From Candidatus Undinarchaeota archaeon (GTDB lineage: Archaea; SpSt-1190): a stretch of 64,000 bases of DNA. Position numbers and translations under genes: made by a program. The stretch spans positions 32,865 to 96,864 of the forward strand of contig CAYVAH010000001.1 of the NCBI GenBank assembly GCA_964449215.1. The letters run 5' to 3'. The notes under the pieces are model-generated. The model was not told the origin of the DNA. It was given only the letters and a program-made list of their open reading frames with translations, and searched no databases. Within the stretch, counting starts at the first letter, position 1. Every line of letters begins with the position of its first letter. This document shows, piece by piece, positions 2 through 44,695 of the stretch.

Positions 2-3000
2 ACCACCCTGAACATCACAGAGATAAGATATACCTGGAAATATGGTATGCTCTTCAATGAAAGTCAAAATGCATTCACCAGGCTGAAAATATACGAGTAT
101 GTTCCCCTGATGGAAAATGCCACACTCTACATAAATGGAAACAGCAGCAGGACAACAGGGGGCTGGGGAGAAAACTTCACCCATTCACTCTGGGTAAGGG
201 ATCGCTTCGGGAGGAATGTATCGGTGTATTTCTGGCACAGGATTGTGGGCAATGAATGGGTGCTCGTGGACAACAGCACCTGTGCCTCCTGCGGAAGCTG
301 GACCCAGATGAATTTCAGCTACAACTACCAGCCGGATGACATAAACACCTGGGAATTCAAGTTCAACGCCACGAACGATGACGGGAACAACAGCCTTGAA
401 GGTTTTGTATATGTTGTCGAGAGGGACGACGTCATCCTGAACTTAAACAAGCCGGAGAATTATGAAATTGTAAACAGGAGCGGATCATATACATTCTCCA
501 CGCGGATATATGACACAGATAATCAGACATACCCGGATGGAACAATAGGAAAAATCTTTGTGTCAATATTCGACCAGAAAAACTTTGAAGACTCACCACC
601 GCCGCTATCCGCATCGGATGGCTGGCTGAACCGCACCGTAACCAATGATGACTGGTGCTCAAATGAAGGATGGTACTATCTGGGGAACCATAGCTGGTAT
701 ACCGCCACCACAGGGGACCAGTACATAAAGGACAACTCCAGCGCCGTAAGGAATTTCACCCTGATGGGAACCCTCAGTAACACAATCACCGAGTTGATAG
801 GGGAAAACGTGAGCAAAGAATACAACTCAACTGTAATAATAGAAGGGAATGTAACAACTGATTGTGGCGTGACTGTCACTTCACCAACCGCGAAGTTTAA
901 CCTCACCAATGGCCAGTATTACTGGGAGTGCACGGGGACTCCTGTCGGCAATACCTACCAATGCAACTTCCCAACATCTTCCGCACCCTATGGGTGGTAT
1001 AACATAACAATGCTTTCAAATCAGAGCCTTTATTGGGATGGATTTGCACAGCAAGTTGCTTCATTTTATCTGGCGAGCGTGCCGGATGTGAATGCAAGTG
1101 TTGACAACCTCGAGGCTCCCTGGGGGAAGAGCCCGTTCAATTTCACGTCATATGTCACGGACCAGGACAATGATACGGTGACCATCAGGTTCTGGCTCAA
1201 GAAAGGTTCAGGATCCTGGGACAATGAACACACAGACACCAAATCAAACACCAGCAACTATCTCACATATTACGAACGCACATTCACCTGCCCCGGCCCA
1301 AATGACGTTGGCACGTGGTACTTCAAAGTCAACGCAACAGATACGTCCGGCTACTGGAACGAAACCTCAATTATTCAGTTCAACGTCACCAAAGAGCCAA
1401 TCTGGGTGATGCACTACCTCGGCGATGGAAAAACAATCAACAGGAGCGATAACGAACCGGATACCCAAACACGGCTGGCCGTCAGGCTTTATGACTACAT
1501 TCTCAACACCAACCGCACAGATCTACTGGATTCAAATGTGCTCTTCTGGGTAAATGGCACATCATTCGTATCAACTCTGAACAGCAGTGGTAAAAACTAC
1601 TACCACGACTACAAACCGACCTGCTCATTCCCGGCAGGAAATCTCAGCTGGAAAGCCAATTTCTCGGGGGAATCCTGCTATGCTGACAATTCGAGTGTTA
1701 ACTTTAATATTGTTGTGATGGGGACTCTCAATGGCAGCCTCATCGTGCCAGACGGCAATACCAACTATTCGCAAGGCGAACTCTTCAACATCACCCTCAA
1801 CTTGACAGACGACTGCAATCAGACCATTGGGGATGCAGATGTGTGGTTTAACCTCACAAATACAAGAACGGGTGACTGGTATAGGTGCCCATCAAGTGGC
1901 TACGCACAATTCAACGGCACTTACTATCTATGCGAAGTCAATACTTCCGAATTCAAGGGCGGCTGGTTTGACATATATGTGAATGCAACAAGGCAGTATC
2001 ACTGGTCATACATCAAAAACTATCAAAATATCTATTTCCAGATAACGCCCGTTACTTTGAGTTCGCCACAACACAGCGCTCCGGGTGATGGCGGGTGGGG
2101 TGAGAACCACAGCTTCTCTGTGATAGTGGACCACTATGCGGATGTCCAGGTGTGCCTACTGGAAGACCTCGGAAGTGGATGGGAAATAACAGAGTGCAAG
2201 TCAATCCCGCAACCAACCAACCAGCAGGTCTTCTTCTACAGGACATACGACTGTGGGCCCGCGAGCAGCTTCGTTTCATATAAATTCAATGCAAGTGAAC
2301 CGGGAGTGCCAAGCACGCTCTCAAACACAACATCACAGAACCATTTCATCCAGAAGGATGACGTCCAGATTGTATACATAAAGGGCAATGAAAGCACGGT
2401 CAACAGGAGCAGTGGATACACCCCCTTCATCCTCCTGATAAACGACACAGACAAAGGAGAACCCGCTCCGTATGTCCAGAGCTATGATTCCCCAAGGGTC
2501 AGGTTCTTCGTCCACAATGGAACAACTTACCTTGAGGATGGAAGCAACGTGACAAACTCATCAGGTTATGTGGAATACAGATTCAACCCGAGTTGCAGCT
2601 ATGAGAGAGGTAGGGCAACCTGGTACGGATCAACAACCCTTGATGCCTGTTACAAAGCCGAGAACTCAGGCACCTACAACGTCACAATCCTGGCGGACAT
2701 TGCACCGAACATAACCTATCCAAATGGCGAAACTTTCTACAGGCTGGCTTCTCTGGTGATAAACATAACAGTTGAATACAAAGACGAATGTGGATTGCAT
2801 TACCTGAATGCAAGTGCTAACTACACCCTGATAAGCAGAGGGTTCGGAACCCACTATAACTGCACAAGCATAGATGACTACGAAAATGGCACTCAAATCT
2901 GCCATTTCGATGCGTCGTTTGCGGATCAGGGATACTATGATGTGAACATCACTGCATGGGGTGTTGAATACCACAACAATGCCACTTATCGGAAGAACAA

Positions 3001-6000
3001 GACATTCAACCTCATACAACTGTGGAAGCCACCAGTCCTCCAGAATGAGACAGTGACTCCTGAGCAGGATGGAGGTTGGGGAGAAAACTTCACGTTCTCC
3101 GTGAATGTAAGTGATGAGAACGCTGAAGACGTGAATGTTAGTTTGTGGCTGAGTCCGGACAACTCAACCTGGGAGTGGATCGAAACCCAGACCTGCTATG
3201 ACTGCGGTTCAATAACTCAACTTGATTTCAATTACAGGGATTATGACTGCTCTGATAAAGGGACGCAGTATTTCAAGTTCAACGCCACCGATTCCCACAA
3301 CTCAACTGACCGAACTGGATTGAACTTCACCGTATATGCCGATGATGTCCAGTTCTTATATGAGGGCCTCTCCACAGGAAACGATACAACTGTGAACAGG
3401 TGGGCGGGACAGTTGCTGAAAATAAGGGTCTATGACCCTGACAATGAAACCTATCTGCCAGATTCTGAAAACACACGATTCTGGGTCACCACTGATGGAT
3501 CGTCCTGGGGTGCCCCGATGGACTCTCAGACAGACAGCAGTTACACCAACGTTACCTTTACACCCGACTGCAACTATCAAGTCGGTCCACAGCTCTGGAA
3601 GGTCGGGACATTCGGAAATAACTGCTACAAAGACACCAATTCCACACTCCATCTCACCACGACAATAACTGGCTACATGTCACTCACAATTGACCAGCCC
3701 TCAGGTGAAATGTTCTTTGAAGGTGATAACGTCACAACCCGTGCGAACATCACAGATGAGTGCGGGTCCCCAACAATAGCAGATGCCACCGTAGCGTTCA
3801 ACGTCTCTCATGACAGTTTTTCAGCCCAGTGCAAACCCGTGCAGAACGAAGGAACAGGATGGTATAACTGCACCTGGAACGTCACCGGGTCTCCCGGCGG
3901 CTGGTACAGCGTGGGAATGAACGCAAGCAGGCAGTATTACAACAACGCCTCCACTATCAAGACAAATGCATTCTTCCATGAGATTGCACCTGTCCTGAGC
4001 GGTGAATATGTCACACCGAATGAAAGTCACTGGGGGACGGAATACACCTTCAAAGTGAATGTGACTGATGAAGATGACACGGTAAGAGTGAAGCTGTACC
4101 ACCGAAAATGGCCATCAACGCTGTGGTCCGAAGTCGAAACGCAGTATTGCAGCGACTGTGTAAACAAGACGCTGACCTTCAAGAGGACCTACACCCAGAC
4201 CGAGATAGGGACATGGGAATGGAAGTTCACCTCAACCGACGATGATCTCTGGTTCAACACGAGCGTCCACAACCTGACTGTGAATAAGAGGAATGTTATA
4301 GTGGAATACTACAGAGGAAACGAAAGCAACGTAACAAGATACGGCGATAATTCAACGCTGTTAACACTCGTGGTCAAGGACGCCGTCTCTAACTCCCCAA
4401 TAGGTCAGGGTCTGGATGGTGGTTTTTGGGTCACGACCAACGGCACAAGTTGGGGACCCAAAATCCCGGAGTCCACCGAAGAGGGAAGCTATCTCAACCA
4501 CAGCTTCAAGCCGGACTGCACCTATCAGACAGGAAAACAGAAATGGAAGGGCGGTGTCGATGAAAGCACGTACTACTACGCCGGTAACTCCTCGGAATAT
4601 AACGTGAGCATATACTCAATAATCAACGGAACCATAAATATCCCGAATGGCACCCGAATGGTGAGGGGCAGCGTTCTGGAAATCTATGGAGATGTCGGAG
4701 ACGAGTGCCCAGGTCTTACCAAGGGTGCAACAGTGAAATACAGGATATACAAGGGAATTGAGTTCATCCCGTCACCTGACCCGGCAAACGACCTGAACAA
4801 CGGCACATACAACGCCAGCTGGGACACCACAGGAGCAGCCCTGGGATGGTACAATATTACAATGAACATCTCAAAGGAATATCATTTCGATTATTACAGG
4901 AAGAAAGTTAATGCGTTCTATCTTGGATCGGGCACGGAGCTGCGCAATCCCTGGGTGGACAACTCACAGGACGGGTGGGGGTACAACTACACCTTCAAAG
5001 TTGAGGTCAGGGATGTTGAAAACGACGTGACAAATGTGAGCCTGTGGTATTCCAATTCATCCAGCGGGCCGTGGAAGTTGATAGACTGGCAGGAGATTCA
5101 GACCACCGTGTTCGAGAATGTTACATTCCACCACAGCTTCGAGTGCCAGGACTATTTTGACGGACCCACCACATATTACAAGTTCCTGGCAAATGACTCG
5201 AATGGTTTCATGGACGAAACTTCCCCACAGACAATCATACTCGAGCAGGATGACCTAGGATTCATAATAGAATCTGGATCAGGGGCCAGCATAGACAGGG
5301 AAGGAATCAACCCGTTTACATTCATAGTCAGCATAAACGACACAGATGCTGGAAAACTCGTTGGGGAGGGATTAAATGGCAGTTTCTACTTCACATACGA
5401 TTCCACGGAATTTGATGCAGGTCACAACACGACAACCAACGCCACCGGACAGATTCTCTACGACCACGACCCGAACTGCACATACACCACAGGGGTCCAG
5501 CTGTGGTATGTATCAATGCATGACAATGCCTGCTACAAGGACACGGATATGGGAACAAGCACATATTCCGTGATAGGCCAGCTAAAGAACAACATAGACA
5601 TTCCTATATTTGGTTCGGAGTTCAACGTCACGAACCGGATACTTATAAGATTCAACGTAACATCGGACTGTGAAGAGGAAGGAGGAATAAATGACACCAG
5701 CTCTGTGGAAATAACACCGAAGCATAATGGCACAGGAACGGAATACTCCTGCAGCGAGAATAATGAAGGTGATGGTTACTACAACTGCAGCTGGGACAGC
5801 ACAGGAAAACCGGAAGGAAACTACACCATAATTCTTCAGAGTTCCAAGGGCTCCTACAATTCCAACACCACAATACTGATGAACTGGTTCTGGCTGGAAA
5901 ATCTACCAACAAACTACACCCGCCAGTGGGTCAGCCCCAGCACTGGAGGTTGGGGTGAGAAATTCCAGTTCAACGTAACCGTGAATGACACGGAAGGGGA

Positions 6001-9000: not shown

Positions 9001-12000
9001 GATCCCAACCCAAGGGGAATGCAACGTCAGTTACCAGGGATTCTCCTGTGCGGATATAGGCACGAACGACTTCCTGTGGGAACTACAGGACGGGGAAACC
9101 GCAAACTACTGGAACACCAGCATAGAAAGTTTGAAGCTCAGGGAATCGGAAACAAATATAACAATAAGCGCAGGAGACGGCATGCAGATAGACAGGAACT
9201 ATGAGACTCTACCAATGACCGTTTTCGTATTCGACAAGGACAACAATGAATGGACCAGTGGAGTAAATGTAAGTTTCTGGGTCAGTCATGATAATCTGAA
9301 TCCTGAGCTTGACACCGTAAAGAAAACATCCGCTGGAAATGCCACATACTGGTTCTCCCCCGATTGCTCATATACCGTTGGCATCCAGAACTGGATGGCC
9401 GGGGTAAGTGATGGTTGCTTCCAGGACGTCAACACCAGCCAGTCAACAGCAACAATCTTTGGAACCCAGACACACTACCTGCTCTCGCCTGATGGAGAAG
9501 CCAGTCTGCGCGGAACTAACGTGACAATTCGAGGCAACATCACAGACGACTGTGGAAACGGACTGGACGATGCATATGTGAACTTCACGATGACCAGTGA
9601 TTTCACGGGAGAAATGTTCTATTGTGCACCGATAAGCAACGAAGGAACCGGATACTACAACTGCACCTTCAACACCAGCGGGATGCCAGCACGCTGGTAT
9701 GACGTAACGCTCAACGCCTCGAGGGATTATCACCACGATGGAAACGAGAGCTGGGACAACAGCTTCTTTGTCTCGACCGAGCCCATACTCACAACACCAA
9801 AGGTCAACACAAGCACCTATGATGGGGATGATGGACCCGTCGGTGGATACTCTGAATTCTTCAATTTCTCCGTGGTTGTCACGGATGAGGATGGCGACAC
9901 TGTCACCGCGGATCTCTGGCTGCGGTTCTGGAACAAGACAACAAACAGCTGGAATAGCTGGACTCATGAAGGGTTAAAAATATGTGCAGACTGCAACAAC
10001 ACCGTGCTTTCATACACAAAATACAACTTCTTATGTGAAAATATGGGAACCTGGCAATACAAGTGGAACGCGACCGACCAGTCGGACAATCCACCGGGTG
10101 AGGGGATAGAATACTCTGATGAGGTCTCACCAAACAACTTTACTGTAGAAGAGGACGACATACTGATAGAATATTATGCGGGAAGCGGGGGGTGGATATG
10201 GAGAAACGGAACAGAAACTGCAACCCTCAGCACAAAAGTCTGGGACGTTGATGACCAGAGATACCTCTCTACAGGAGAGGCAAGCGGCACTATATGGATA
10301 ACAAGGGATGGAACCAACTGGGATGATGGAAACCTCCTTAGTGTGCTGGCAGGCTTCTTTAACTTCACGTTCCAGCCGGACTGCACAAACAATTACAGCG
10401 TAGGGTTACAAAACTGGATCTCGGGAACCACCGGAAACTCATGCTTCAAGAATGCAAACTCCTCCACTCACAACATTACACTGAAAACGTATATGACCGG
10501 CCAGAAAGACTATCCGGATGGTGATGCCTACGAGCGCGGGAAGCTTGTAAACTTCAGTTACTATGTGGAGGACGAGTGCTCAGTCGGTATAACTGAATTA
10601 ACAAGAACACTGAAACTCAAATCGGGAACTACAACATACACGATAACTTCCGGAATAACTGACCACGGCAACGGCACATACACATACAGCTGGGATTCTG
10701 AAGGTAAGGTCCTGGGGTGGTATAACACCTCATTTGAGGTCAGCAAGGAACATTACGTGCCACTTAACATATCTGATAGCGATGTTTTCTACCTTGGAGA
10801 ACCACCGGAGCTTCAACTCGAGAGTGTTGATAAAATACTTGGGGGTTGGGGGGAAAGCTGGCATTTCCAGGTTCAGTGCAGGGACCTCGAGGGAGACACA
10901 GACATGGTCTACCTCTGGCTTAAAAAGAACTCCACAGCCCAGTGGGAGCTCCGCTCTCAACAATCCTGCACATCCACATCCTTCCTCATCCTGGACTTCT
11001 ATGACAATTACACCTGTGACTACATAACCCCACAAGCAGATAACACACTGTGGAAGTTCAACGCGAGTGATCAGTGGAACTTCACAGACGAAACCCCCGA
11101 ACACACAATAACCATAGAAAAGGATGATGTCAGCATAGAGCACGTATCAGGACATCTTGGCAACGTTGATAGAGAAGGTTTTGGCACAGTGACCCTTGCA
11201 GTGCGCGCCTACGACCCGGATAAGCTTGAATATCTCCCGGCTGGCAGGAGTGGAACAGTTTATGTAACAACGGACGGCTCCAGCTGGGACTCCGGAAACA
11301 CCAACAGCACGGACTCTTCCGGGAACGTCTATTTCATATTCAACCCCAACTGCTCCTATGGAACAGGAATCCAGAAGTGGCGGGGTGGAATAGAGGGAGA
11401 CTCCTGCTATAAGGATAGCTTCAGTCCTGACTTCACCCTGACAGTTTATGGTCAGCTAAAGATAGCACTTGACCAGCCACCGGAAGGAAGCACCTACCAG
11501 ACAACGGAAATCGTTGATATTCGACTGAATGTGAGCACTGATTGCCAGGATGAAGGACTCCTGAACGACTCCACGGTCAATATCACGTTGAACTCGCCGC
11601 TGGATGATTCAGAGTCCTGCACCCCTGTGAATAATGAAGGCGATGGTTACTACAACTGCAGCTGGGACACAACACTCAAGATGCCCGGATACTGGGACAT
11701 TTTCACCAACGCCTCGAGGGAGTATTACCATCACAACTACACGCAATACAACGACTGGATAGAGCTGAAGAACTCCCCGACCCAATACAGCGATATGAAT
11801 GTCACTCCCCAAGTCTCCGGGTGGGGAGACCTTTATAACTACTCTGTCAACATCAGCGATCCGGACTTCGACTCCGTAAACTGCACCCTGTATATATCCA
11901 CAAACGGTGGATCAAGCTATCAATCAATCGACACGATGATCCTGCCGGGTGGTAATGGAACCTGCTATTTCGAGAAGGAATACTCCTGTGATGACATTGG

Positions 12001-29085: not shown

Positions 29086-30229
29086 GCCGAAGAAAGTCAA
29101 AAAGGAGGAAGAAAAGCCCGCGGAAGAGGCCCCAGAAGAAGAAGGCGGGGAACCGGCAGCAGAGGAAGGAGAAAGAACAATAGGAGATATTGTTGAGGAG
29201 GAGGGGCTTGTTTCCGAACCTGAAAGGGAGTCAATGCTCAAGCAGCAGGGGACACCTGAGCTCTCTGAAGTTCTGATGCGCATTGACAGAATTGACGGGA
29301 AGCTGGAGCTCTTCAAAGGGATGCTCGATTCCTTCAACGAAAGACTCATAGAACTCAATGAACGCCTCGGGGACACCCGCAGGATGGTCTTCGACAGGGA
29401 AAAATGGGCCTCAAAGCTCGAAACGGAGTTCGAGAAAGTGGCAGGCATTGTGAAGGAACTTGACCCGGAGAAAATCGTAATGAGGTTCGAGAAGTTCAAG
29501 ACAAGCATTGAAAAACAGAATGCAACCCTGGAAAAGCTCAACGACCTCCTGAAGAACCTATCGGAGCGGATGAAGATTGCGGAGGGGAAACTCGAGAACG
29601 TTAAGAGCCTCGAAAACGTGATGAAGGCCGGAAAGACCGTTGAGGAGAAATTGAAGAAGATTCAGGAAGCGAAGACATATACGGACAAAATATCCGCGAA
29701 GATAGAGGCGATGTTCCTCGAAACGAATGAAAGGGTCGCCATGATGAAGGAAAACCTTGATAAGATTGAAAAGCATGAGTCGATGCTGGGCGACCTGCTG
29801 AAGGAAATTGAATCACTGAAGTTCAAGATAGATGAAGAGCTCGTGAAAAAGAGGGAGGTTGAGGAACTTATTGAGTCCGCAAAAGACGTAATCATAGAAG
29901 AAATCGTTGGGATAAACCCAGTTGCTTTTGACAACCTTCGAAGGAGGGTCGCGATATTGGAGAACAAGGGAAAAAGCACCAGAGAGCTCGAAGAGGAGCT
30001 GAAGAAATACCAGACACTTATGGATCAGGTTGAAAGGGATTTCCAGATGGGGCGGATAAAGGACGAAGCCAGGAACGAGCTGAAGGCCAGCACGGAGAAA
30101 AAGATAGAAGAAATCCGGCTGGTCCTTGAGAGCAGAAAGGGTCCAAAAAAGGTTGAGGGGAAGAAAGCAAAGGGAAAGGAAACCAAGTTGAAGGAAAAAC
30201 TTCTGAGCATGGGAAAGAAATCTACTTGA
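29051..30229 (+). CDS. K/E-rich cytoplasmic coiled-coil protein (start uncertain: TTG/GTG at 29051-29066; first ATG at 29234)
   Basis: Long ORF with heptad-like K/E/L-rich sequence throughout and no TM. Overlaps the previous gene across an A-run (ggcaaaaaagaag). SD-like GGAGGTGG at 29053-29060. Confidence 0.55.
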   Translation: MEVELLAKKKTKPKKVKKEEEKPAEEAPEEEGGEPAAEEGERTIGDIVEEEGLVSEPERESMLKQQGTPELSEVLMRIDRIDGKLELFKGMLDSFNERLIELNERLGDTRRMVFDREKWASKLETEFEKVAGIVKELDPEKIVMRFEKFKTSIEKQNATLEKLNDLLKNLSERMKIAEGKLENVKSLENVMKAGKTVEEKLKKIQEAKTYTDKISAKIEAMFLETNERVAMMKENLDKIEKHESMLGDLLKEIESLKFKIDEELVKKREVEELIESAKDVIIEEIVGINPVAFDNLRRRVAILENKGKSTRELEEELKKYQTLMDQVERDFQMGRIKDEARNELKASTEKKIEEIRLVLESRKGPKKVEGKKAKGKETKLKEKLLSMGKKST

Positions 30230-33200
30230 AAACCCTCTTCAGTTCCTCGAAGGTCTCGCGGGATATCAGCCCCTCTTCATATTGGCTCTTCAGTGTTTGA
30301 AGAACGTCAGATCCCCCTTCTGCTTCCCTTTTCTTCTTCACTATTTCCTCGAGCTTCTTCATCGCCCTCCTCTGCTCCCTCCCTTTCAGTATCTTGAACT
30401 TGTTTATGGCTATCACAATCAGGAGAATCAGAGCAAATATGGAAACGGCAATCACATACCAGTTCGGTGGAACCTCCGGGAGCGTGACTGTCGGCAGATA
30501 CCTCGGTTTTGAAATCTCCAGCCGGTATTTTATCTCCTCGATGGTGTTCTCCACATCAGATATCGTCTTGATTGCATCAACAGTCTGGTCCTTCTCGAGG
30601 TAGGTTTCAGCCACATCGAGCATTTCCCTGGATTTCCTGAGGAGGGAAAGAATCTTGGTAACATCACCCCCCCTCGCAGCAACCTTACCCGCCTGGTCCT
30701 CCAGATCCATAAGCTCCTCCCGGAGGGAAGCAATCCTCGCCCGGAGAGCCTCCTCCTGTGTCTTAAACACTATAACCTTGTAGAACTCCGAAACCTCCAC
30801 TTCACGGGAAATTATACGCATCTTGGTCACGTAGGTTCGGGCCGTGGCGTCCTCAGGGATCGTGAACTTCACGACAAGGTATCCACTTGACCCGGGAGAG
30901 AGGGATGCCACCTCCCTGACAACCTCGAACCAGTCCTTGTCTATGTCCTCAAAGAAAACTGTTATGTCGGAAAGGCCAACATCCCCTGTGTTCTTCACCT
31001 CGATGGTGAGATAACCCACCGAACCGCGGTTTATTATCATCTCATCCGGGAAGACGTTGGTTATTGTGAGCTCCATCACAGCAGCCTCAACCGGTGTTAT
31101 AATCTCAGGGGGGACCTCCTCCGGCGCAGCAGCTTCCACCACCCTGAAACCCCTCGAAACCTCAAGCGGGGGGTACACTGTCGAGTAGTTCAGAAGGACG
31201 TGGAGCGAGTAGCCCCCCGCTGACTGGTTGGAGTATATGGAAAGATTTGCAGTTAACGTGCGGTTGCCCCTGGCAGGAACGAATGTCGGCCTGTCATGGA
31301 CATAGGCATAAGTTCGATTCTGTGAATCCTCAATCCAGTATGAGAGAAGAACATCCTGGTCAACATCCCCGTAGTTCTCGAGCAGTATGGTGAAATTCAG
31401 GTCCTCACCCTGTGGCACCTCTGGGTCTATGCTGATTATATCAACGTCATAGGGTCCGCCAAAACTGACGCGGAAAGCCTTGAGCTTCCTCACCTGCCTC
31501 CCCCCTTGCTCAACTATAAGCTCCGCCAGATAGTATCCGGTGGTCGTTGGGAGGCTGTGCTTCGTCTGGTAGAGCCTGCTATTGTTCGTGACGTTGAAAA
31601 GCGAAAGCGAGCTGTTCGTGAAATAAAGATTCTCGGCCGAGTCATACACGTTCAGCGTGACTTCGTCCGGTTCCACCATAGGACCATCAGTATAGACGAG
31701 AGCGTAAAAGTGTGCCTGTATCGGCTGGCTTGAGTACCACACATATCCTACATCAAACTCAACATTATATTCCTCCCTGACGGAGAAGGAATACGTGGTG
31801 CTGTGATTAACTGTCTTGTTCGCCACCGGGTCCCGGTGCGAGGCATTCACAGTTATGGTGTAGTTGCCCAAGGGAGCATCATCGGGAATTGAAAATGTTG
31901 GTATCGGCAGCACCGTTCCATCGGACTGGAGCTCGTCGTGATATCGCAGGTATCCGAGCGAGTCGTTGAGCTTTAGAGAAACATTTGCAGGTATGGGAAT
32001 CCCGGACTCATCAGTGGTGTTTATGTATATGGATGCCGTTTCTCCCGTGTAGTATGTCCGGAAACCCGTTCCCACACTCGTGTGGAGTATTGGATAAACA
32101 TACAAGGTCAGGTTCTGACGGGAATAAAGCCCAAGGTTGTCTCTCGTCTCAACCTGCAAGGTGTAGTAACCGAACTCGTTGCTGTTCCCCCAGGTCCCGG
32201 GGTATGTGAGCTCGTAGTAGTAAGTCTCATTTGATTGATTCACGAGGTTCATGTCAGATGCCTGCACCGAGCCCCGGGGAAGAAACACAACGAGTCTGGT
32301 GAAGCTCAACCCCTGCCCGGATTTATCAGTGATATTCGCATAAACCGTTATGTCTTCAAGCTCCTGCGTAATATTCTTTGACAGTGTGGCATTTATCTCG
32401 GCAAGCTCTCTTGGTATCATACTCACGTTCAAATATCTCCAGGAGGGCTGTGCGACGCCAGCACTCACATTGTATGTGGCATTATAATAGTCCCTCGCGA
32501 CTCCGGTGAGATTCCAGAGTATGACAAAGAGGTGCACGCCCTGCGCTGGAACGGTGAAGTTGGTCTCATTGGTGTATGTATAGTTGGCGCTTTCCGGGGA
32601 AACGGTGAAGTTCAGTTCCACGTTACCCGTGTTGTTGACCATAACGTCGCACATCTTCCCCTCATCGAAAGCTACCTCGGTTGTGCAGTTCTCCGGGTGG
32701 AGCTCCCAGGTCCGGGAAACGGGAACTGTAATATTCAGGTACACAAAATCGTAACCATCATCGGAGCTTGTGTAATTGGCAGTTCCGGTATAATTGCCGG
32801 GGGAATAGCCGGGGGAGACATTCACATTCGCAGTCACATCAATCACAGAGCCAACAGGAATGAAGTCTATCTCGGGATAAAACGTTATGTTGAAATCATC
32901 CAGCCCAAGCACCGTTACACTCACCCCATTCACCTGGTCATTACCGGTGTTCCTGACGGTGAAGCCACCGATATCCGTGCTCTGACCGTGTGGCGCCGAA
33001 CCGGCCACATACGCTTCGTCTATCTGAAACTCCTTGTTCGAAAGAACTTCCACAGTGATGTTCGTGGTGTTGTATGTCACCCCTATTCCGGGATTCGCCC
33101 AAGAAACATTGACAACAACAGTGTAGTTCCCGGGCGTGCTCCGCTTCACAGCAAGCTCAAATGTCCTGAAACAGAACCCACCCACCGGCACGTCACCGCA

Positions 33201-35903
33201 GTTATACCTGTTGCCAGAAACGTTCGTGAGCCAGTAGGCCTCCGGGAGCTCCAGGGTGATGTTTGTGTCGAGGGCCGGAGAAGACCCTATATTCGTCGTG
33301 TTCACAGAAACCGTGAAATTCTGAAATTTATACCACCTCATCCTGTCAGAGGTGAGGGCGGAGGGCGTGGCGTTCACGCTCATAAAAGTCTCTATTATGC
33401 TAACCTGGACAGGTATGGAATCCCAGACGCCATTCTCCGAGGACGCATTTAGAGTACCATCAAAGGTACCACGCTCATGGTCACTTGGCATATACACCCA
33501 GACCTCCACAGAAGCATTTTCACCCTGGAAAATCAAGGAAACATTTGAAGGGGTGAAATTGAAAGTCATGGTGGGTATTCCTGTGACGTTGAACGTCACA
33601 TTCTGCAACTCGAAGTTTCCTTCGGATAAGACGGTTATATTCCCCATATAGTTCCACTCGCCTGGAGCGGCAGTTATGGAAATGTTCTCCTCGGCAATCC
33701 TGAGTGAGGGATTCGGGTCCACGGAAATGTTGAACGTGGTGTTGTAGCTGTCGGTGGTGTTGTCGGAGTTCAACCAGTCCACTGTGGCATTCACAAGATA
33801 AAACCCTGGAGTTTCATTTTCGGGGACCCACACATCAAAAAACCTGATGGAAGATTGAAAGAGGTCTATCGTACCAAGCTGTTCGAAGCTCGTGTTCACC
33901 CACCAATTCCCGGGGAGATTCAGGGTAATGTTGGTCGCGTAGGCGGTGCCGTTCCCGAGGTTGGTCACATTCGCCACCATCGTGAAGTTCTGTCCTTCAG
34001 AAAGGGTCACGTTATCTATGGACTCCCTGCCGCCTGTGAAATTCAGACCGACAGTCACATCCGTCACATACGTCACTGAGGTAAAGGTGTCCTGCGCCGT
34101 CCCTGTGTTGCCAAGTCTCGTAGCATTACAGACAAGTGTGAACACACCATAGTATGAGGGGGACACGAATTCTATCAGGTATGTGCCGTTCCCATAGTCA
34201 GTTACATTTGGGTTCGCATCTGTGGAGTCATACACACAGCTTATATTCGCCCCGGGGATGTATGTGTCATTACGGTAGTTGGTAACCTCCATGGTCGCAT
34301 TTATGGTGCGATTAACGAACCCGTAGTCATTTGAAATATTGAGTGACGCAGTGTAGGTATCAAACACAAAAAAGCTGGCGGTGGTCGTGTTCAGGAGCAC
34401 GTTCTTCTGGTCCCAGGCATAAGCCGTGATATTCCACTGACCTGTCGAGTTCGACTCGTTCAGGATGAAATAATTTGTGTAGAGGTCGTCCCCTGCCTGC
34501 GAATCCCCATGACTCCCGTCGTCATAAAGGGTCAGCGACAGGTCGCCCCCCTCAGACACAATGGTCGCATTCACGAGGGTTATCAGCCCGGAATCCACGG
34601 TGGCATTAACAAAAACTGTTACATTCTCCCCGCGGTTATAGCTTGAGTGTTCCGTTGAAGCGTTCAGGAACACCTCCCATTTTTCCGAAAGAGTCTTTGA
34701 CGTTTCCTCCCTGAAAAGCAACCTGTTCCTGAGGTTCCTGACTTGGGCGTCAGTCGGAGATCCCTTGATCGCGGAAGGGCTGTTGAAATGAAGTGCTGTC
34801 ACCTCATATAGGGTCTCATCTGGCTGAACCGTCACATTGGAAAGTTCAATACCCCCCCTCCCCCAGCTGTTGTTCCTGTTGACGGAAGCATAGGGACCCG
34901 AATCCTCAACATTTATGATACCAACGTGGAAGTTCGCGAACTCCGCGGCAAACCAGAACCACGAGGCAGGCTCGGAGGCATTCCCGATTATTATGCTGTT
35001 CGTCCCTGCCCTTTTAACATCAAAGAGCAAAGCACCAGCAGGAGTGGAATTGCGGGTTATGTTATAGTCCGCCGTGTTCTTGTAAATTTGCTCCACCTTT
35101 ATCCACTGGCTCTGATTGTAGAATATGTAACGCTTCACAATTTCACCTTCTGTCTGGTTTGTGGAGTTCCATACAACTTCCTTCCCTCTTTGCTCCACCA
35201 CGAGCCTTGCAGGACCCTGATAGAGAACTGTCATGTTGTTGCGAAGGTCGAACGTAAAGTTGTGTGTGTCATTGGAATACTGCATATACTCAATGGGGTT
35301 CTCCCCCTCAGACGGAGGAGACCAGAACTCATTCTCAGCATAGTCCTTTATTCTATAGATGCCTGAAACGTTGGCGCCCCGGGAGGTGTCTATCCAGTAT
35401 TCAAGACCTTTTGTGGTTCCGGAATCCTCAATGGTCACGTTGACCTGCAGCTCCTCGCCATCCCAGCTGTACGGGATGACAGTGTAGTTGATGGCGGGCT
35501 TGCTGTCGGTGTCATAGTAGAGACAAAAGACCCTCAGCTCGTTGGCCGCGAGGGTACCGTTCATTATGAACGCCAGCGTTCCGTGAAAATTCATCGAGGC
35601 GTTGAACCCCTGACCCTCATCGAACTGGCTCGGCAGCTCGAACATGGCACTCCCGCTGGAGGGATCCTGCTCTATGAGGCGGAGTGAAGTGGCGTTGATA
35701 GTCCCGCTTCCCCCAGAAGCATTCAGCTCAGCAGTAAGGTTCAGCGGGAACTCTATTGGCCAGTCTTCGCGGGAATACTTGGAAGCATTTACTTCGATAC
35801 ACACACGGTAATCCCAGCTGGAATCCCACCACTCCAGCTTCGCAAAAGCCGGGAGAACCAAAAGAAGCAGCAGCAGGGCTACCCGAAACCTCACGGAATT
35901 CAA
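30222..35903 (-). CDS. Large surface (S-layer-like) glycoprotein, 1,893 aa, with N-terminal signal peptide, C-terminal coiled-coil stalk, TM anchor and short cytoplasmic tail (start codon TTG at 35903 or GTG at 35894)
   Basis: N-terminus (M)NSVRFRVALLLLLLVLPAFA is signal-peptide-like. Very high NxS/T density. Coiled-coil segment at aa ~1720-1810. TM is WYVIAVSIFALILLIVIAINKF. TATA-like GGCTTAAATTAAAAGCC at 35909-35925. Convergent with the giant-gene operon, with 3' ends overlapping by 8 nt. Confidence 0.75.
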   Translation of the reverse strand: MNSVRFRVALLLLLLVLPAFAKLEWWDSSWDYRVCIEVNASKYSREDWPIEFPLNLTAELNASGGSGTINATSLRLIEQDPSSGSAMFELPSQFDEGQGFNASMNFHGTLAFIMNGTLAANELRVFCLYYDTDSKPAINYTVIPYSWDGEELQVNVTIEDSGTTKGLEYWIDTSRGANVSGIYRIKDYAENEFWSPPSEGENPIEYMQYSNDTHNFTFDLRNNMTVLYQGPARLVVEQRGKEVVWNSTNQTEGEIVKRYIFYNQSQWIKVEQIYKNTADYNITRNSTPAGALLFDVKRAGTNSIIIGNASEPASWFWFAAEFANFHVGIINVEDSGPYASVNRNNSWGRGGIELSNVTVQPDETLYEVTALHFNSPSAIKGSPTDAQVRNLRNRLLFREETSKTLSEKWEVFLNASTEHSSYNRGENVTVFVNATVDSGLITLVNATIVSEGGDLSLTLYDDGSHGDSQAGDDLYTNYFILNESNSTGQWNITAYAWDQKNVLLNTTTASFFVFDTYTASLNISNDYGFVNRTINATMEVTNYRNDTYIPGANISCVYDSTDANPNVTDYGNGTYLIEFVSPSYYGVFTLVCNATRLGNTGTAQDTFTSVTYVTDVTVGLNFTGGRESIDNVTLSEGQNFTMVANVTNLGNGTAYATNITLNLPGNWWVNTSFEQLGTIDLFQSSIRFFDVWVPENETPGFYLVNATVDWLNSDNTTDSYNTTFNISVDPNPSLRIAEENISITAAPGEWNYMGNITVLSEGNFELQNVTFNVTGIPTMTFNFTPSNVSLIFQGENASVEVWVYMPSDHERGTFDGTLNASSENGVWDSIPVQVSIIETFMSVNATPSALTSDRMRWYKFQNFTVSVNTTNIGSSPALDTNITLELPEAYWLTNVSGNRYNCGDVPVGGFCFRTFELAVKRSTPGNYTVVVNVSWANPGIGVTYNTTNITVEVLSNKEFQIDEAYVAGSAPHGQSTDIGGFTVRNTGNDQVNGVSVTVLGLDDFNITFYPEIDFIPVGSVIDVTANVNVSPGYSPGNYTGTANYTSSDDGYDFVYLNITVPVSRTWELHPENCTTEVAFDEGKMCDVMVNNTGNVELNFTVSPESANYTYTNETNFTVPAQGVHLFVILWNLTGVARDYYNATYNVSAGVAQPSWRYLNVSMIPRELAEINATLSKNITQELEDITVYANITDKSGQGLSFTRLVVFLPRGSVQASDMNLVNQSNETYYYELTYPGTWGNSNEFGYYTLQVETRDNLGLYSRQNLTLYVYPILHTSVGTGFRTYYTGETASIYINTTDESGIPIPANVSLKLNDSLGYLRYHDELQSDGTVLPIPTFSIPDDAPLGNYTITVNASHRDPVANKTVNHSTTYSFSVREEYNVEFDVGYVWYSSQPIQAHFYALVYTDGPMVEPDEVTLNVYDSAENLYFTNSSLSLFNVTNNSRLYQTKHSLPTTTGYYLAELIVEQGGRQVRKLKAFRVSFGGPYDVDIISIDPEVPQGEDLNFTILLENYGDVDQDVLLSYWIEDSQNRTYAYVHDRPTFVPARGNRTLTANLSIYSNQSAGGYSLHVLLNYSTVYPPLEVSRGFRVVEAAAPEEVPPEIITPVEAAVMELTITNVFPDEMIINRGSVGYLTIEVKNTGDVGLSDITVFFEDIDKDWFEVVREVASLSPGSSGYLVVKFTIPEDATARTYVTKMRIISREVEVSEFYKVIVFKTQEEALRARIASLREELMDLEDQAGKVAARGGDVTKILSLLRKSREMLDVAETYLEKDQTVDAIKTISDVENTIEEIKYRLEISKPRYLPTVTLPEVPPNWYVIAVSIFALILLIVIAINKFKILKGREQRRAMKKLEEIVKKKREAEGGSDVLQTLKSQYEEGLISRETFEELKRVFK

Positions 35904-37153: not shown

Positions 37154-37196
37154 AATATTCCCTAGACATGTAATAGTTAAATGTTACCACGCCAAA

Positions 37197-37210
37197 ACTT
37201 TTTAAGAAAA
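37197..37210 (+). promoter_or_regulatory. TATA/BRE-like promoter element of tRNA-Asn (ctTTTTAAGAAAAG), ~25 nt upstream of tRNA 5' end
   Basis: AT-rich TTTTAAGA box at the canonical archaeal distance. Near-identical element (TTTTAAGAAAAGCTCGACCAAAAG) precedes tRNA-Ser. Confidence 0.55.
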
Positions 37211-37229
37211 GCTTGACCAAAACTTGTAA

Positions 37230-37331
37230 GCCCCGGTAGCTTAGCGGCAGAGCGCCTGGCTGTTACCCCGTTTCGGGTCACGGAGCGGGACAGAAACCAG
37301 GCGGTCGCAGGTTCGAATCCTGCCCGGGGCG
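37230..37331 (+). tRNA. tRNA-Asn (anticodon GTT) with a 30-nt intron at the canonical 37/38 position (37266-37295)
   Basis: Hand-folded. Acceptor GCCCCGG/CCGGGGC, D-stem GCTT/GAGC, anticodon stem CCTGG/CCAGG, loop CU-GTT-A, intron ccccgtttcgggtcacggagcgggacagaa, T-arm GCAGG-TTCGAAT-CCTGC, discriminator G, no encoded CCA. Confidence 0.75.
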
Positions 37332-37376: not shown

Positions 37377-37400
37377 GCCGGGATGGCCGAATGGTAAGGC
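37377..37400 (+). repeat. Exact 24-nt duplicate of the 5' half (acceptor + D-arm) of the downstream tRNA-Ser, followed by a duplicated promoter element containing an 8-bp-stem hairpin (GAGCTTTT-AAG-AAAAGCTC)
   Basis: gccgggatggccgaatggtaaggc occurs at 37377-37400 and again at 37437-37460. The intervening 36 nt carry the TTTTAAGAAAAGCTCGACCAAAAG promoter motif. Confidence 0.8.
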
Positions 37401-37436
37401 ACCGAGCTTTTAAGAAAAGCTCGACCAAAAGTGGAT

Positions 37437-37517
37437 GCCGGGATGGCCGAATGGTAAGGCGCTAGCCTGGAGAGCTAGTTCCCTCTGGGATTAGGGGTTC
37501 GAATCCCCTTCCCGGCG
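37437..37517 (+). tRNA. tRNA-Ser (anticodon GGA), type II with long variable arm
   Basis: Acceptor GCCGGGA/TCCCGGC, anticodon stem CTAGC/GCTAG with loop CT-GGA-GA, 14-nt variable arm TTCCCTCTGGGATT, T-arm AGGGG-TTCGAAT-CCCCT, discriminator G. Confidence 0.8.
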
Positions 37518-37518
37518 T

Positions 37519-37854
37519 ATGCGTGTGTTCTGCCCCTCCAAGGCGAAGGAACCATATCGGAAGGTTATTGAGGAACTTTCAAGGAGGGCGAGGGTTGAAG
37601 TGATATTCTCCAAAAGACTTCCCGATGATGGAGTGGTCCTGGACGAGAAGGGGGAACCACTGACAATGGAATTGCTGGAGAAACTTGTGGAGTCCGGGAA
37701 AGACCTTATAGTTGGCGGACCTGATGGAACCAACGCAAAGGGAAGAAGAATCTCCCTCGGGGACTACACGCTCAATCATCAGATAGCAATAATAGTCCTG
37801 CTGGACCTTCTGTTCCGTGTCAGGTTTCCCAGGCATCCATACAACAGGCACTAG
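37519..37854 (+). CDS. rlmH: RlmH-like SPOUT rRNA (pseudouridine) methyltransferase, short form (111 aa) starting 2 nt after tRNA-Ser
   Basis: C-terminal half aligns to bacterial RlmH: LIVGGPDG...ISLGDYTLNHQIAIIVLLDLLFRVRF...HPYNRH versus LLIGGPEGL...[23 protein letters not shown]...HPYHRE. Lacks the first ~15-40 aa of typical RlmH. Confidence 0.6.
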   Translation: MRVFCPSKAKEPYRKVIEELSRRARVEVIFSKRLPDDGVVLDEKGEPLTMELLEKLVESGKDLIVGGPDGTNAKGRRISLGDYTLNHQIAIIVLLDLLFRVRFPRHPYNRH

Positions 37855-39227
37855 GGCTCGAACTTTATTTTGGGTCCTTCATTCGTGTCCTCTATCCTGA
37901 TTCCTTCCTTGGAAAGCCGCTCGCGGATTGAATCACTCAGGGAAAATTTCCGGTCCCTTCTCAGCCTCTCGCGAAGCTCCGCCAATTCCTCCGCAAGCCT
38001 AAGCTCCCTCGGGGTCCATGACTTCCCCGGAAGGAAAGCAAAAATCTGATCAACCTTCCCAAAAGCTTCATACGCCTTCTCGACAGACTTCCTGTCCGGA
38101 TCGTTCGAAAGCACAAGAGAAGCCATGAAGCTTATATTTGCATATGCCTCGGGGGTTTTGAGGTCATCCTCAAGCGCTTCCACAGCGCGCTCGAACTCTG
38201 TTTCAATTTCCCGGGAGATGTCATCCGCACCATAAAGGCCCCTTTCCTTCCTCTGCAGAATCTCAAACCAGGCCCTGGCAACCTTCCACCACTGCTCCTG
38301 TCCCTTCTTCAGTTTCTCCCAAGTAAAATCGAGCTGGGTGCGGTAATGAGCGCTCAGGAGATAATAGCGGAGAACCTCGGGGGGAAAAGAGTCAAGTATT
38401 TCATCTATGCCTATTATGTTTTTCAGGGACTTGCTCATCTTTTCCTTGGCTATCGTGAGGAAGGCTGTGTGGACCCAGTACCTGACCCAGGGCTTCTTGC
38501 CAAAAGCCGCCTCGCTCTGGGCAATTTCATTTTCGTGGTGTGGAAATATGAGGTCAGAACCACCACCGTGAATGTCAAACTGCTTCCCGAGGTACCGGAC
38601 GCTCATGGCAGAGCATTCTATATGCCAGCCCGGACGGCCATCACCAAAAGGCGCATACCAGTAGGGCTCCCCTCCCTTACGGAACTTCCACAGAGCAAAA
38701 TCCGCCGGGCTCCGCTTTCCAGGGGCCGGTTCAATTCTGGCAACCTTTGGGTCCTCAAGACCCACCCCACTGAGCTTACCGTAGTCGGGAAATTTGCCAA
38801 CATCAAAGTATATCCCGTCATCCAGCTTATAGGCAAACCCGCCATCAAGGAGGGTCTGGACAAGCTCTATAATTTCTGGCATGTGGCCAGTAACTGTTGG
38901 AAAAACCAATGGCTCCTTTATTCTGAGCTTCTCAAGGACCTTGAAGAAATGCCTTGAATAAATGTCAGGAACCATCTGCCAGCTGTCAAACTCCCGCGCC
39001 CGTTTGATTATCTTGTCGTCGATGTCCGTGAGATTTATCACCATCTTCACCTTGTTCCCTTTAAACTCAAGAAACCTGCGGAGGAAGTCAAAGAACACAT
39101 AGGTGCGGGCATGACCAACATGTGTTCTGTCGTAAGGGGTCGGACCACAAACATACATCCTGACCTCCCCTTTTTTCATGGGTTTGAAATCTTCCACCTT
39201 CCTGCTGAGGGTGTTGTATATTTTCAT
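37851..39227 (-). CDS. cysS: Cysteinyl-tRNA synthetase
   Basis: Class I HIGH motif ([11 protein letters not shown]) and KMSKS motif (KMSKSLKN), ~458 aa. Confidence 0.9.
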
Positions 39228-42815: not shown

Positions 42816-42947
42816 AAACAACATATATCGCACCACCTCCGTCAACGGCTTCGAGGTGAGCCCGCACGAGCGGAGCGAGTAAGGGCGACAACGAGAAGCG
42901 GTTGATTGAAAACGCAAATTATATAACGGAAGAGTAGTTAACTGGGC

Positions 42948-43427
42948 ATGAAAAGTCTGGCTGAAAAAAGGTACCTGAAATTGGGGGACTTTGGAGTAAA
43001 AAACCCAGAAAAAGACGCGAGGCAAATAATAGCCGAATGCCAAAAAGCGGGTATCAAACCCGGAAGGATCTTGAAAGACGCCGCAAAGTATTGCAAGAAC
43101 CTGTCAAAATATGCACTCAATGGAAATGAACTCGCCAACTGGTTTTCCAGATATGCGGGGGATATCGTTGGAAGTTTGAAGAATGAAAAAACAATCAGAG
43201 AGTTCTTCAAGGAATTGTATGAACAAACAGAGGCTCTATCATACAAATCAAGGGGTATGGCACTAAATCAAATTCTGTATGCACCATTAGTAATAAGGAT
43301 GTATGCAGAGAAAGGAAAGAACCCACTGCAGGAATTCAATGAAAGGCACCGGAAATTGTGGGAGACCACAAATCATAAACCTGTGTTGCATGGATATTCG
43401 TGGGGGCCCGCCGGGATGAGAGGATGA
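42948..43427 (+). CDS. Hypothetical lysine-rich protein (159 aa), visibly lower GC than neighbours, immediately downstream of tRNA-Pro
   Basis: Clean ORF with ATG start and no TM. AT-rich codon usage differs from flanking genes by eye. Confidence 0.45.
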   Translation: MKSLAEKRYLKLGDFGVKNPEKDARQIIAECQKAGIKPGRILKDAAKYCKNLSKYALNGNELANWFSRYAGDIVGSLKNEKTIREFFKELYEQTEALSYKSRGMALNQILYAPLVIRMYAEKGKNPLQEFNERHRKLWETTNHKPVLHGYSWGPAGMRG

Positions 43428-44658: not shown

Positions 44659-44695
44659 ATAAACAACAAATTGAAACCATATATATCAATTGGTT

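Follow-up and report, generated by a model that had tools for sequence, protein, structure and literature searches.

How is a protein-coding gene expressed when its start codon is located one nucleotide beyond the 3′ end of a tRNA gene, and is such a gene intact? These questions are raised by a locus in a 64,000-nt stretch of DNA from a Candidatus Undinarchaeota archaeon (GenBank assembly GCA_964449215.1, contig CAYVAH010000001.1, positions 32,865 to 96,864; this whole stretch is 'the window', and its numbering is used throughout). On the + strand, a class II tRNA-Ser(GGA) gene occupies 37437–37517 (Rfam, 64.7 bits; ARAGORN, 37436–37518); it ends with the discriminator G at 37517, has no encoded CCA, and is followed by a one-nucleotide spacer (T, 37518) and the ATG at 37519 that opens a gene for a 111-aa protein (37519–37854, including the TAG stop at 37852–37854). 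We designate this gene mini-RlmH; its product is a SPOUT methyltransferase homolog (COG1576/PF02590-like). An in-frame TAG (37492–37494) is located in the variable arm of the tRNA, 27 nt upstream of the ATG, and no ATG, GTG, or TTG is found between the two. A sequence-only reading of the window had placed the junction at these positions, in agreement with Rfam, ARAGORN, and the list of open reading frames (ORFs), and had recognized the in-frame stop, which is present; it had offered two explanations, that is, a tRNA–mRNA co-transcript released by RNase P or RNase Z, or truncation of the gene by insertion of a tRNA cassette. The comparisons described here refute truncation and favor the co-transcript, with RNase Z as the probable releasing enzyme.

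As judged from its homologs, the ORF is a functional gene that encodes a naturally miniaturized SPOUT methyltransferase of the RlmH type; it is neither N-terminally truncated nor a pseudogene. A database search identifies 32 archaeal homologs, mostly 111–113 aa in length, that cover 100% of the query; these begin at the same Met and share a conserved N-terminus (M[RK]I.CPSKAKEPY; alignment A1), and both the first Met and the length are also conserved in clades that have no upstream tRNA. Homologs of the same length with a conserved N-terminus at this Met, which the sequence-only reading had itself regarded as decisive against truncation, therefore exist. That reading had correctly noticed an RlmH/SPOUT-like C-terminal region: residues 26–101 match positions 56–144 of Pfam SPOUT_MTase (PF02590) with 29.3 bits, marginally above the gathering cut-off of 27. 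Because the local Pfam and NCBIfam matches begin at profile position 56 or later, they give the impression that the N-terminus is missing, and 15–40 N-terminal residues had been thought to be absent. However, when the A1 profile is aligned by hhalign with a profile of canonical RlmH (A2, an alignment of database RlmH representatives of 150–160 aa), the two match end to end (99.7%, E = 1.3e-25), with residue 1 on canonical residue 1–2; the approximately 40 residues by which the protein is shorter are lost internally, mainly in a segment of ~28 residues after strand β2 (which we take to be helix α2) and then in gaps of ~6, ~5, and ~2 residues. A MAFFT alignment with an Escherichia coli RlmH sequence placed the gaps inconsistently and was superseded by the comparison with A2.

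The predicted structure and the pattern of substitution are consistent with this description. An AlphaFold2 model built on A1 (predicted local distance difference test score, pLDDT, 91.5; predicted template modeling score, pTM, 0.84) contains five strands, with β1 at residues 2–5, and in this model the protein has a minimal SPOUT α/β fold with a putative C-terminal knot region. In a Foldseek search with the model, the 11 best PDB matches are all RlmH (1o6d, 1to0, 1ns5, 1vh0, and 5twj; template modeling score 0.69–0.73), followed by TrmD; the alignments of the 111-aa model span 141–153 columns of RlmH chains that contain 147–157 residues, and by sequence PDB RlmH chains match down to E = 6e-09. 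The reading frame is under strong purifying selection: among seven orthologous coding sequences the ratio of nonsynonymous to synonymous divergence (dN/dS) is 0.03–0.14, and the proportion of synonymous differences (pS) is 0.68–0.93 in all pairs but one, that is, at or near saturation. In an exhaustive profile search only 12 clusters are found at E ≤ 1e-10, and beyond these is a continuum of RlmH-like proteins of 117–135 aa and then 140–160 aa; by these comparisons, mini-RlmH is a small, divergent, miniaturized branch of the RlmH family.

From the alignments, the miniaturized protein has kept the N-terminal β1-α1-β2 unit, the three S-adenosylmethionine (SAM)-binding loops, and most of the catalytic residues. 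The loops VLDEKG, GGPDG, and SLGDYTLNH align with the canonical bights LD..G, GGPxG, and SLS..TL, respectively; G66, G67, P68, and G70 (in GGPDG) and S79, L80, N86, and H87 (in SLGDYTLNH) are invariant in the family, and the C-terminal HPY motif is conserved with RlmH. For the residues whose roles have been described in E. coli RlmH, together with those of the SAM-binding loops (Koh et al., PMC5430550), the equivalents are H87 for H129, D96 for E138 (Asp or Glu across the family), R100 for R142, Y108 for Y152, and R/K110 for R154; the equivalent of T126 is also kept. The knot-forming C-terminus had been described in the sequence-only reading as intact, and this is supported except at one position: the equivalent of the essential H153 is N109, a position at which ≥90% of the family has Asn, the rest Thr or Cys, and none His.

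The mini-RlmH protein thus differs from bacterial RlmH (YbeA, COG1576, PF02590; the 23S rRNA m3-pseudouridine-1915 methyltransferase, an antiparallel dimer that modifies N3 of this residue, in helix 69, in assembled ribosomes) in length (111 aa instead of ~155), in deletion of the post-β2 segment and three smaller loop segments, in the Asn at the position of H153, in its archaeal host, and in scores that are below the NCBIfam equivalog cut-offs; it shares with it the predicted SPOUT fold, the end-to-end profile match, the GGPDG and SLG.YTLNH loops, the HPY terminus, and the five residues in the list above. E. coli RlmH (155 aa) has been described as the smallest SPOUT enzyme (PMC5430550).

To place the start codon in context, the loci that encode the homologs were fetched from genome, metagenome, and assembly collections; these have three types of start context. 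In group A, the tRNA-Ser(GGA) gene runs into the start codon as …CCCGGCG-T-ATG, and a convergent gene for cysteinyl-tRNA synthetase (cysS) overlaps the stop by 4 nt; this group includes the window and L007, L008, L016-18, L019, L020, L024, and L021, the proteins of which are 100%, 88%, 71%, 73%, 73%, 69%, and 62% identical to that in the window, respectively (L016-18 is GCA_007050885.1, labeled Candidatus Bathyarchaeota, the closest syntenic genome). In group B (L002, L003, L009, L011, L012, L022, and L025), the ATG overlaps the stop codon of an upstream rotamase gene (ATGA; …AAAAATGA), which implies translational coupling to that gene. In group C (L005, L013, L023, and L006/L014), the gene has its own TATA box (cTTATTAAAt or TTTTAATATT) ~25 nt before the start codon (ATG or GTG), which extends the protein by 12 residues. 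Because the other clades have either coupling or a TATA box of their own, the tRNA junction replaces a normal start context.

Several features of group A suggest that the junction is constrained. Seven distinct orthologous sequences, with 62–100% protein identity, all read GCG-T-ATG here, and both the length and the identity of the T spacer are invariant in all of the group-A loci (window, L007, L008, L016-18, L019, L020, L021, and L024). Outside the junction the sequences vary: the distance from tRNA-Asn to tRNA-Ser ranges from 61 to ~1600 nt, or tRNA-Asn is absent; codons 2–14 differ mostly at third positions; and in L020 and L024 the acceptor stem has a compensatory change (GCCGGG/CCCGGC to GCTGGG/CCCAGC). 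The G-T-ATG arrangement is, by this comparison, more than chance, since it is present in every orthologous locus fetched. The stop codons of mini-RlmH and cysS (37851–39227, − strand; Pfam tRNA-synt_1e, 387.6 bits) overlap by 4 nt (CTAG, 37851–37854), and a 4-nt overlap (CTAG or CTAA) is found in every group-A locus, including L016, L019, L020, L021, and L024; the 111-codon gene fits exactly between tRNA and cysS. Full-length transcripts of the two convergent genes must, therefore, be mutually antisense at their 3′ ends.

The annotated N-termini of the homologs should be read with these contexts in mind; the database gene calls for P0004, P0018, P0019, P0021, P0023, P0028, P0029, and P0031 are inconsistent. 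The 25 extra residues of P0004 (…EQGFESPSRR-M) are the translated T-arm and acceptor stem of the tRNA, an extension that is possible because its tRNA lacks the in-frame TAG. We considered the same origin for the 12-aa extensions (MEAKPLNATTKV and similar) and ruled it out, since these have their own TATA box ~25 nt 5′ of the ATG or GTG; the extension (M..PLHATTKV), starting ~25 nt after the TATA box, may be genuine in its clade.

How, then, would the message be made? Most promoter-proximal genes in the window have recognizable signals: in 12 of 16 an A/T octamer that matches at ≥7 of 8 positions is centered at −22 to −34 from the start codon. A TATA-like box ~27 nt before the start codon (e.g., 42918–42950 and 44660–44690) is typical, and this spacing implies leaderless mRNAs for most of these genes; the organism thus appears, by this indirect evidence, to translate leaderless mRNAs. 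Genes inside operons have Shine-Dalgarno sites of the GGAGGTG type, and a division between leaderless first genes and Shine-Dalgarno-led internal genes is usual in archaea.

The mini-RlmH gene has neither type of signal. The sequence-only reading had seen no room for a promoter; at the level of motifs, the 45 nt before the ATG at 37519, which are tRNA sequence, contain no TATA-like or Shine-Dalgarno-like element: the best A/T octamer matches at 5 of 8 positions, and no GGAGG-like site is found at −5 to −12. The stretch at approximately −30, in the variable arm, reads GAGCAG in L019 instead of GATTAG, which means that a hidden TATA box at this position is not conserved. From the start of tRNA-Ser (37437) to the mini-RlmH stop codon, the sequence never contains four or more consecutive T, while several other tRNAs in the related loci have a run of four to six T within 10 nt of the 3′ end; when the + strand is read from the tRNA-Ser start, T-rich sequence is first encountered at 37864–37871 (TTTATTTT), a candidate archaeal oligo-T terminator that falls within the cysS coding sequence of the opposite strand. 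Comparable T-rich stretches are found in the orthologs without strict conservation. Upstream of the tRNA, the palindrome CGAGCTTTTAAGAAAAGCTCG (37403–37423) is followed by GACCAAAA, and the center of the palindrome is located 24 nt before tRNA-Ser +1; this is a TATA-like candidate promoter for a tRNA-Ser/mRNA unit. The motif AAAGCTYGACCAAAA occurs only twice in the 64-kb window, before tRNA-Asn and before tRNA-Ser (0.45 expected by chance), and the same motif flanks tRNAs in related loci. A scan for sigma-70 promoters and intrinsic terminators was disregarded as not informative for an archaeon.

With a probability of roughly 65%, we favor a tRNA-Ser/mRNA co-transcript from which the message is freed as a leaderless mRNA by an RNase Z cut at the 3′ end of the tRNA. 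The transcript would be driven by the TATA-like element 5′ of tRNA-Ser, and the ORF, without a promoter or ribosome-binding site of its own, would be the 3′ part of the tRNA-Ser(GGA) precursor. For an archaeal tRNA without an encoded CCA, the 3′ end is made by RNase Z, which cuts after the discriminator base, and CCA is then added; RNase Z leaves a 3′-OH on the tRNA and a 5′-phosphate on the trailer. Since no CCA is encoded here, RNase Z must cut directly after G37517, so that T37518 is the predicted first base of the 3′ product. The cut would create an mRNA that begins 5′-p-U-AUG and is effectively leaderless, that is, the type of mRNA apparently used by most promoter-proximal genes of this organism; one obligatory tRNA-processing step would thereby turn an untranslatable precursor into a translatable message. 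In Bacillus subtilis, a uridine just 3′ of the discriminator stimulates RNase Z cleavage. This mechanism explains the lack of promoter and Shine-Dalgarno signals, the lack of a terminator between tRNA and ORF, and the strict 1-nt spacer. The sequence-only reading had named RNase P together with RNase Z; RNase P acts only on the 5′ side of a tRNA, so RNase Z is the relevant enzyme, and with this restriction the co-transcript is the best-supported of its proposals.

A primary leaderless mRNA could also start at or next to the ATG at 37519, independently of tRNA processing, if tRNA-Ser contained a cryptic promoter. In the window, leaderless mRNAs are normally made from a TATA box located ~27 nt upstream, archaeal promoters can be degenerate, and 644 internal start sites have been reported in Thermococcus kodakarensis (PMC4247193); however, the interval from −34 to −20 (CTGGGATTAGGGGTT) is G+C-rich variable-arm and T-stem sequence in which the best octamer (5/8) falls short of the window promoters (≥7/8), the stretch is not conserved as A/T-rich in L019, and a spacer fixed at exactly 1 nt would be left unexplained, so we regard a cryptic promoter as unlikely. 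The same evidence for co-transcription is compatible with a 5′ end that is not made by RNase Z, with either the unprocessed precursor being translated or another nuclease acting (other routes of tRNA 3′ maturation exist in some organisms), but this version is still harder to accept. When the tRNA plus 63 nt of mRNA is folded to its minimum free energy, the cloverleaf is kept and the AUG is located at the foot of the acceptor helix, which, with no Shine-Dalgarno site, makes internal initiation on the precursor implausible; without an encoded CCA, a precise cut after the discriminator base, yielding U-AUG, is needed in any case; and an exonucleolytic route would require an initial cut inside the ORF that destroys the message. 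Several points nevertheless weigh against the RNase Z-released co-transcript and against the identification of its product. In L016 and L019 the palindrome is found inverted or directly adjoining the tRNA; the upstream architecture is thus not uniform, which makes its assignment as a promoter weak, and the same element could instead act as an oligo-T terminator. The RNase Z product has a 5′-monophosphate, an end that archaeal leaderless initiation and mRNA stability may not tolerate in this lineage. We infer co-transcription, the RNase Z-made 5′ end, and leaderless translation of the product from comparative anatomy, not from transcripts. Curated thresholds make the RlmH assignment marginal (Pfam, 29.3 bits against 27; NCBIfam, ≤28.6 against ≥141); and two conserved residues of RlmH are changed, namely, H153, the equivalent of which is Asn, and the post-β2 glutamate, which is deleted.

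These last points are also the substance of a different view of the protein, namely, that it is a real methyltransferase but not RlmH in function, that is, a paralog with a different RNA target. All seven NCBIfam RlmH equivalog models are missed by a wide margin (28.6 bits at best, with a cut-off of 141); the H153F substitution inactivates E. coli RlmH (PMC5430550), yet the family has Asn, Thr, or Cys at this position. The glutamate that is invariant in canonical RlmH (E54 of A2) falls inside the ~28-residue gap, and the 12 clusters found in the representative search describe a small divergent branch. We take E54 of A2 to be E56 in E. coli numbering. Against a paralog, the protein retains the GGPxG loop and the equivalents of H129, E138, R142, Y152, R154, and T126, all of its closest structures are RlmH, and no other SPOUT family scores better; a changed target is thus a real but doubtful possibility. 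By the predicted fold and by profile, the protein belongs to the RlmH branch, and by the NCBIfam cut-offs it falls outside the RlmH equivalog; by analogy with the bacterial enzyme, its activity would be m3-pseudouridine methylation of helix 69 of 23S rRNA. A far more drastic view is that insertion of the tRNA cassette removed the 5′ end of a once longer RlmH gene, so that the remaining ORF is a pseudogene or encodes a crippled protein. The 111 aa compared with ~155 aa in bacterial RlmH, the local profile matches that begin at position 56 or later, and the in-frame stop in the tRNA suggest this; the family-wide length and first Met, also in clades without an upstream tRNA, the internal position of the missing residues, the confident model with β1 at residues 2–5, and dN/dS of 0.03–0.14 refute it.

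The proposed RNase Z-released message of mini-RlmH may not be the only product of its kind. In L026, the contig that encodes P0030 and represents a lineage with 53% identity, a tRNA-Ser(UGA) gene is followed by a single A and an ATG (9773–10054); this ATG opens a decayed 49-codon duplicate of the 5′ end of rlmH (MKIKEVAAMSRVTIWCP… compared with MRVKTPAASSRVTIWCP… in the real gene), in which 22 nt perfectly repeat the real gene at 10001. The functional rlmH is located 146 nt downstream, with its TATA box inside the decayed copy. The simplest history is that an ancestral junction of tRNA-Ser, 1 nt, and the rlmH ATG was later replaced via partial tandem duplication. In the same lineage (L006, L014, and L026), a tRNA-Ser(GCU) gene with discriminator G is followed, with zero spacer, by the ATG of a gene for a 134-aa EamA-family transporter; this arrangement is located at 2498–2986 (− strand) in L006 and at 10391–10879 in L026, and it is the same in L014. 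The EamA ORF matches its Pfam profile with 51.4 bits over positions 5–134 of 135; because the alignment starts at profile position 5, this ATG is a genuine start. The L026 relic and the EamA abutment, the latter unrelated to rlmH, are hints that the tRNA-to-ATG arrangement is selectable. The remaining tRNAs in the window (Pro, Gln, and Asn) have no abutting ORF, so the arrangement is not general to every tRNA here.

Because the mini-RlmH spacer stays at 1 nt through saturating divergence, and because a decayed relic junction and the EamA abutment are found, we tentatively suggest that tRNA-Ser genes are used as combined promoter and 5′-end-processing modules for protein-coding genes, a chromosomal prokaryotic counterpart of mitochondrial punctuation; this generalization is possible but rather less than probable. 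Its hosts would be uncultured archaea, the metagenome-assembled genomes of which are labeled Altiarchaeota, Undinarchaeota, 'Bathyarchaeota', or simply 'archaeon'.

Repeated sequences are located 5′ of both types of ORF-abutting tRNA-Ser genes; these are tandem units that consist of the first 17–24 nt of tRNA-Ser, the palindrome GAGCTTTTAnGAAAA(A)GCTC, GACCAAAA, and a spacer. The window has one extra 60-nt unit (37377–37436, + strand), which repeats, at 37377–37400, the first 24 nt of tRNA-Ser and continues with the palindrome CGAGCTTTTAAGAAAAGCTCG, GACCAAAA, and the spacer. Two extra units are found in L007 (814–933), the strain with the 100%-identical protein, and two in L008 (2484–2622; Tandem Repeats Finder, period 59, 2.4 copies, 100% match); L006, from a distant lineage and with a different isoacceptor, also has two (~2987–3135, − strand), with a 73-nt period. 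Tandem Repeats Finder reports no tandem repeat in the window itself (only 1.4 copies), where the repeat was established by direct reading and by comparison with L007 and L008. The palindrome arm CGAGC/GCTCG is located where the anticodon stem CTAGC/GCTAG would be. These recurrent copies, each a tRNA 5′ fragment joined to an A/T palindrome, may be part of the same system as the junctions. We also considered that the partial tRNA-Ser copies are attachment-site scars of an integrated element; this was rejected, since no integrase is encoded in the 1.5-kb stretch between tRNA-Asn and tRNA-Ser in L008, where one ORF is epimerase-like and another CDP-alcohol phosphatidyltransferase-like, and the repeats are only 59–73 nt apart.

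The A/T palindrome itself (loop TTTTAnGAAAA) stays symmetric via compensatory changes in its arms (GAGC, CCACC, AAGC, and AAAC), with GACCAAAA on one side. It flanks tRNA genes in the window (37195–37222 and 37403–37430) and in L003, L004, L012, L013, L016, L019, L021, and L026. Its placement varies: it is found either 5′ of the tRNA, promoter-like at approximately −25, or directly 3′ between convergent genes, like a bidirectional oligo-T terminator. The copy at 37195–37222 (+ strand; AAACTTTTTAAGAAAAGCTT followed by GACCAAAA, read from the sequence) is a TATA-like, promoter-like element, possibly also a terminator, located 8–35 nt 5′ of a tRNA-Asn(GUU) gene.

This tRNA-Asn gene (37230–37331, + strand; Rfam tRNA, 60.3 bits, with a 31-nt insertion in the anticodon loop) contains a 30-nt intron at the canonical 37/38 position; in its intron mode, ARAGORN miscalls it as Ser(aga). 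The intron is present in the window, L007, and L008 and absent in L016, L019, and L021, the intron-less tRNA-Asn(GTT) genes of which are identical to the exons in the window, so it was recently gained or lost. A minus-strand ORF at 37579–37851 and long ORFs antisense to rlmH in L004 and L013 were treated as shadow ORFs. Elsewhere in the window, a giant ORF of at least 9446 codons (47–28387, + strand) is probably cut at the window edge, and its syntenic counterpart in GCA_007050885.1 is called at 13,237 aa; no Pfam match is found in its first 3000 residues, while the last 3000 have weak Ig-like, NPCBM_assoc, and MG2 matches and, near the C-terminus, a HerA/DUF87-type ATPase domain (39.6 bits). 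A second very large ORF (1893 codons; 30222–35903, − strand) has a syntenic 1878-aa gene in L016 and L027 with only a faint NPCBM_assoc match.

The closest parallel to the proposed RNase Z-released message is tRNA punctuation in mitochondria, in which RNase P and RNase Z/ELAC2 excise tRNAs and thereby release mostly leaderless mRNAs. As there, the start codon in the archaeal locus is 0–1 nt from the tRNA 3′ end and has no separate promoter or ribosome-binding site, and the mRNA 5′ end is predicted to be defined by RNase Z and the message to be translated without a leader; unlike in mitochondria, this is one chromosomal unit of a free-living archaeon and not a polycistron that spans the genome, the message is punctuated by a tRNA at its 5′ end only, and the arrangement is read from DNA alone. 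Bacterial tRNA–mRNA operons (e.g., thrU-tyrU-glyT-thrT-tufB of E. coli) likewise transcribe tRNA genes together with a translation-related protein gene, but their mRNAs keep a Shine-Dalgarno leader and the translation start is not made by tRNA processing.

Archaeal tRNA co-transcripts are also known. In T. kodakarensis, tRNA-Lys is co-transcribed within the 159-nt 5′ untranslated region of TK0306, and release of the small nucleolar RNA sR44 from a tRNA-Arg co-transcript by RNase Z has been proposed, as observed in Nanoarchaeum equitans (PMC4247193). Like the locus described here, TK0306 and the dicistrons of tRNA and C/D box small RNA have one promoter shared by a tRNA and a downstream RNA, and RNase Z is invoked for release; however, no abutment of start codon and tRNA is described for TK0306, where the tRNA is internal to the untranslated region, and the RNA released from the dicistrons is non-coding, whereas the cut proposed here would precede a start codon by 1 nt and be needed for translatability. 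In the searchable literature, coverage of which is incomplete, we found no prokaryotic precedent for a leaderless mRNA made by RNase Z, only mitochondrial work.

If the co-transcript model is true, this locus would be a conserved non-organellar case in which tRNA 3′ processing creates the 5′ end of a translatable mRNA, and the expression of a ribosome-modifying enzyme would be directly coupled to tRNA-gene output. It would also follow that archaeal leaderless initiation can use processed 5′-monophosphate ends, and gene-finders would gain a rule for these genomes, with P0004 as an example of a false N-terminal extension translated from a tRNA. For the family, an RlmH homolog of 111 aa, in which the SAM-binding loops are kept and the active site is mostly preserved, would be smaller than any other SPOUT methyltransferase described, and it would be a useful minimal model for the folding of knotted proteins and for the role of the canonical post-β2 segment.

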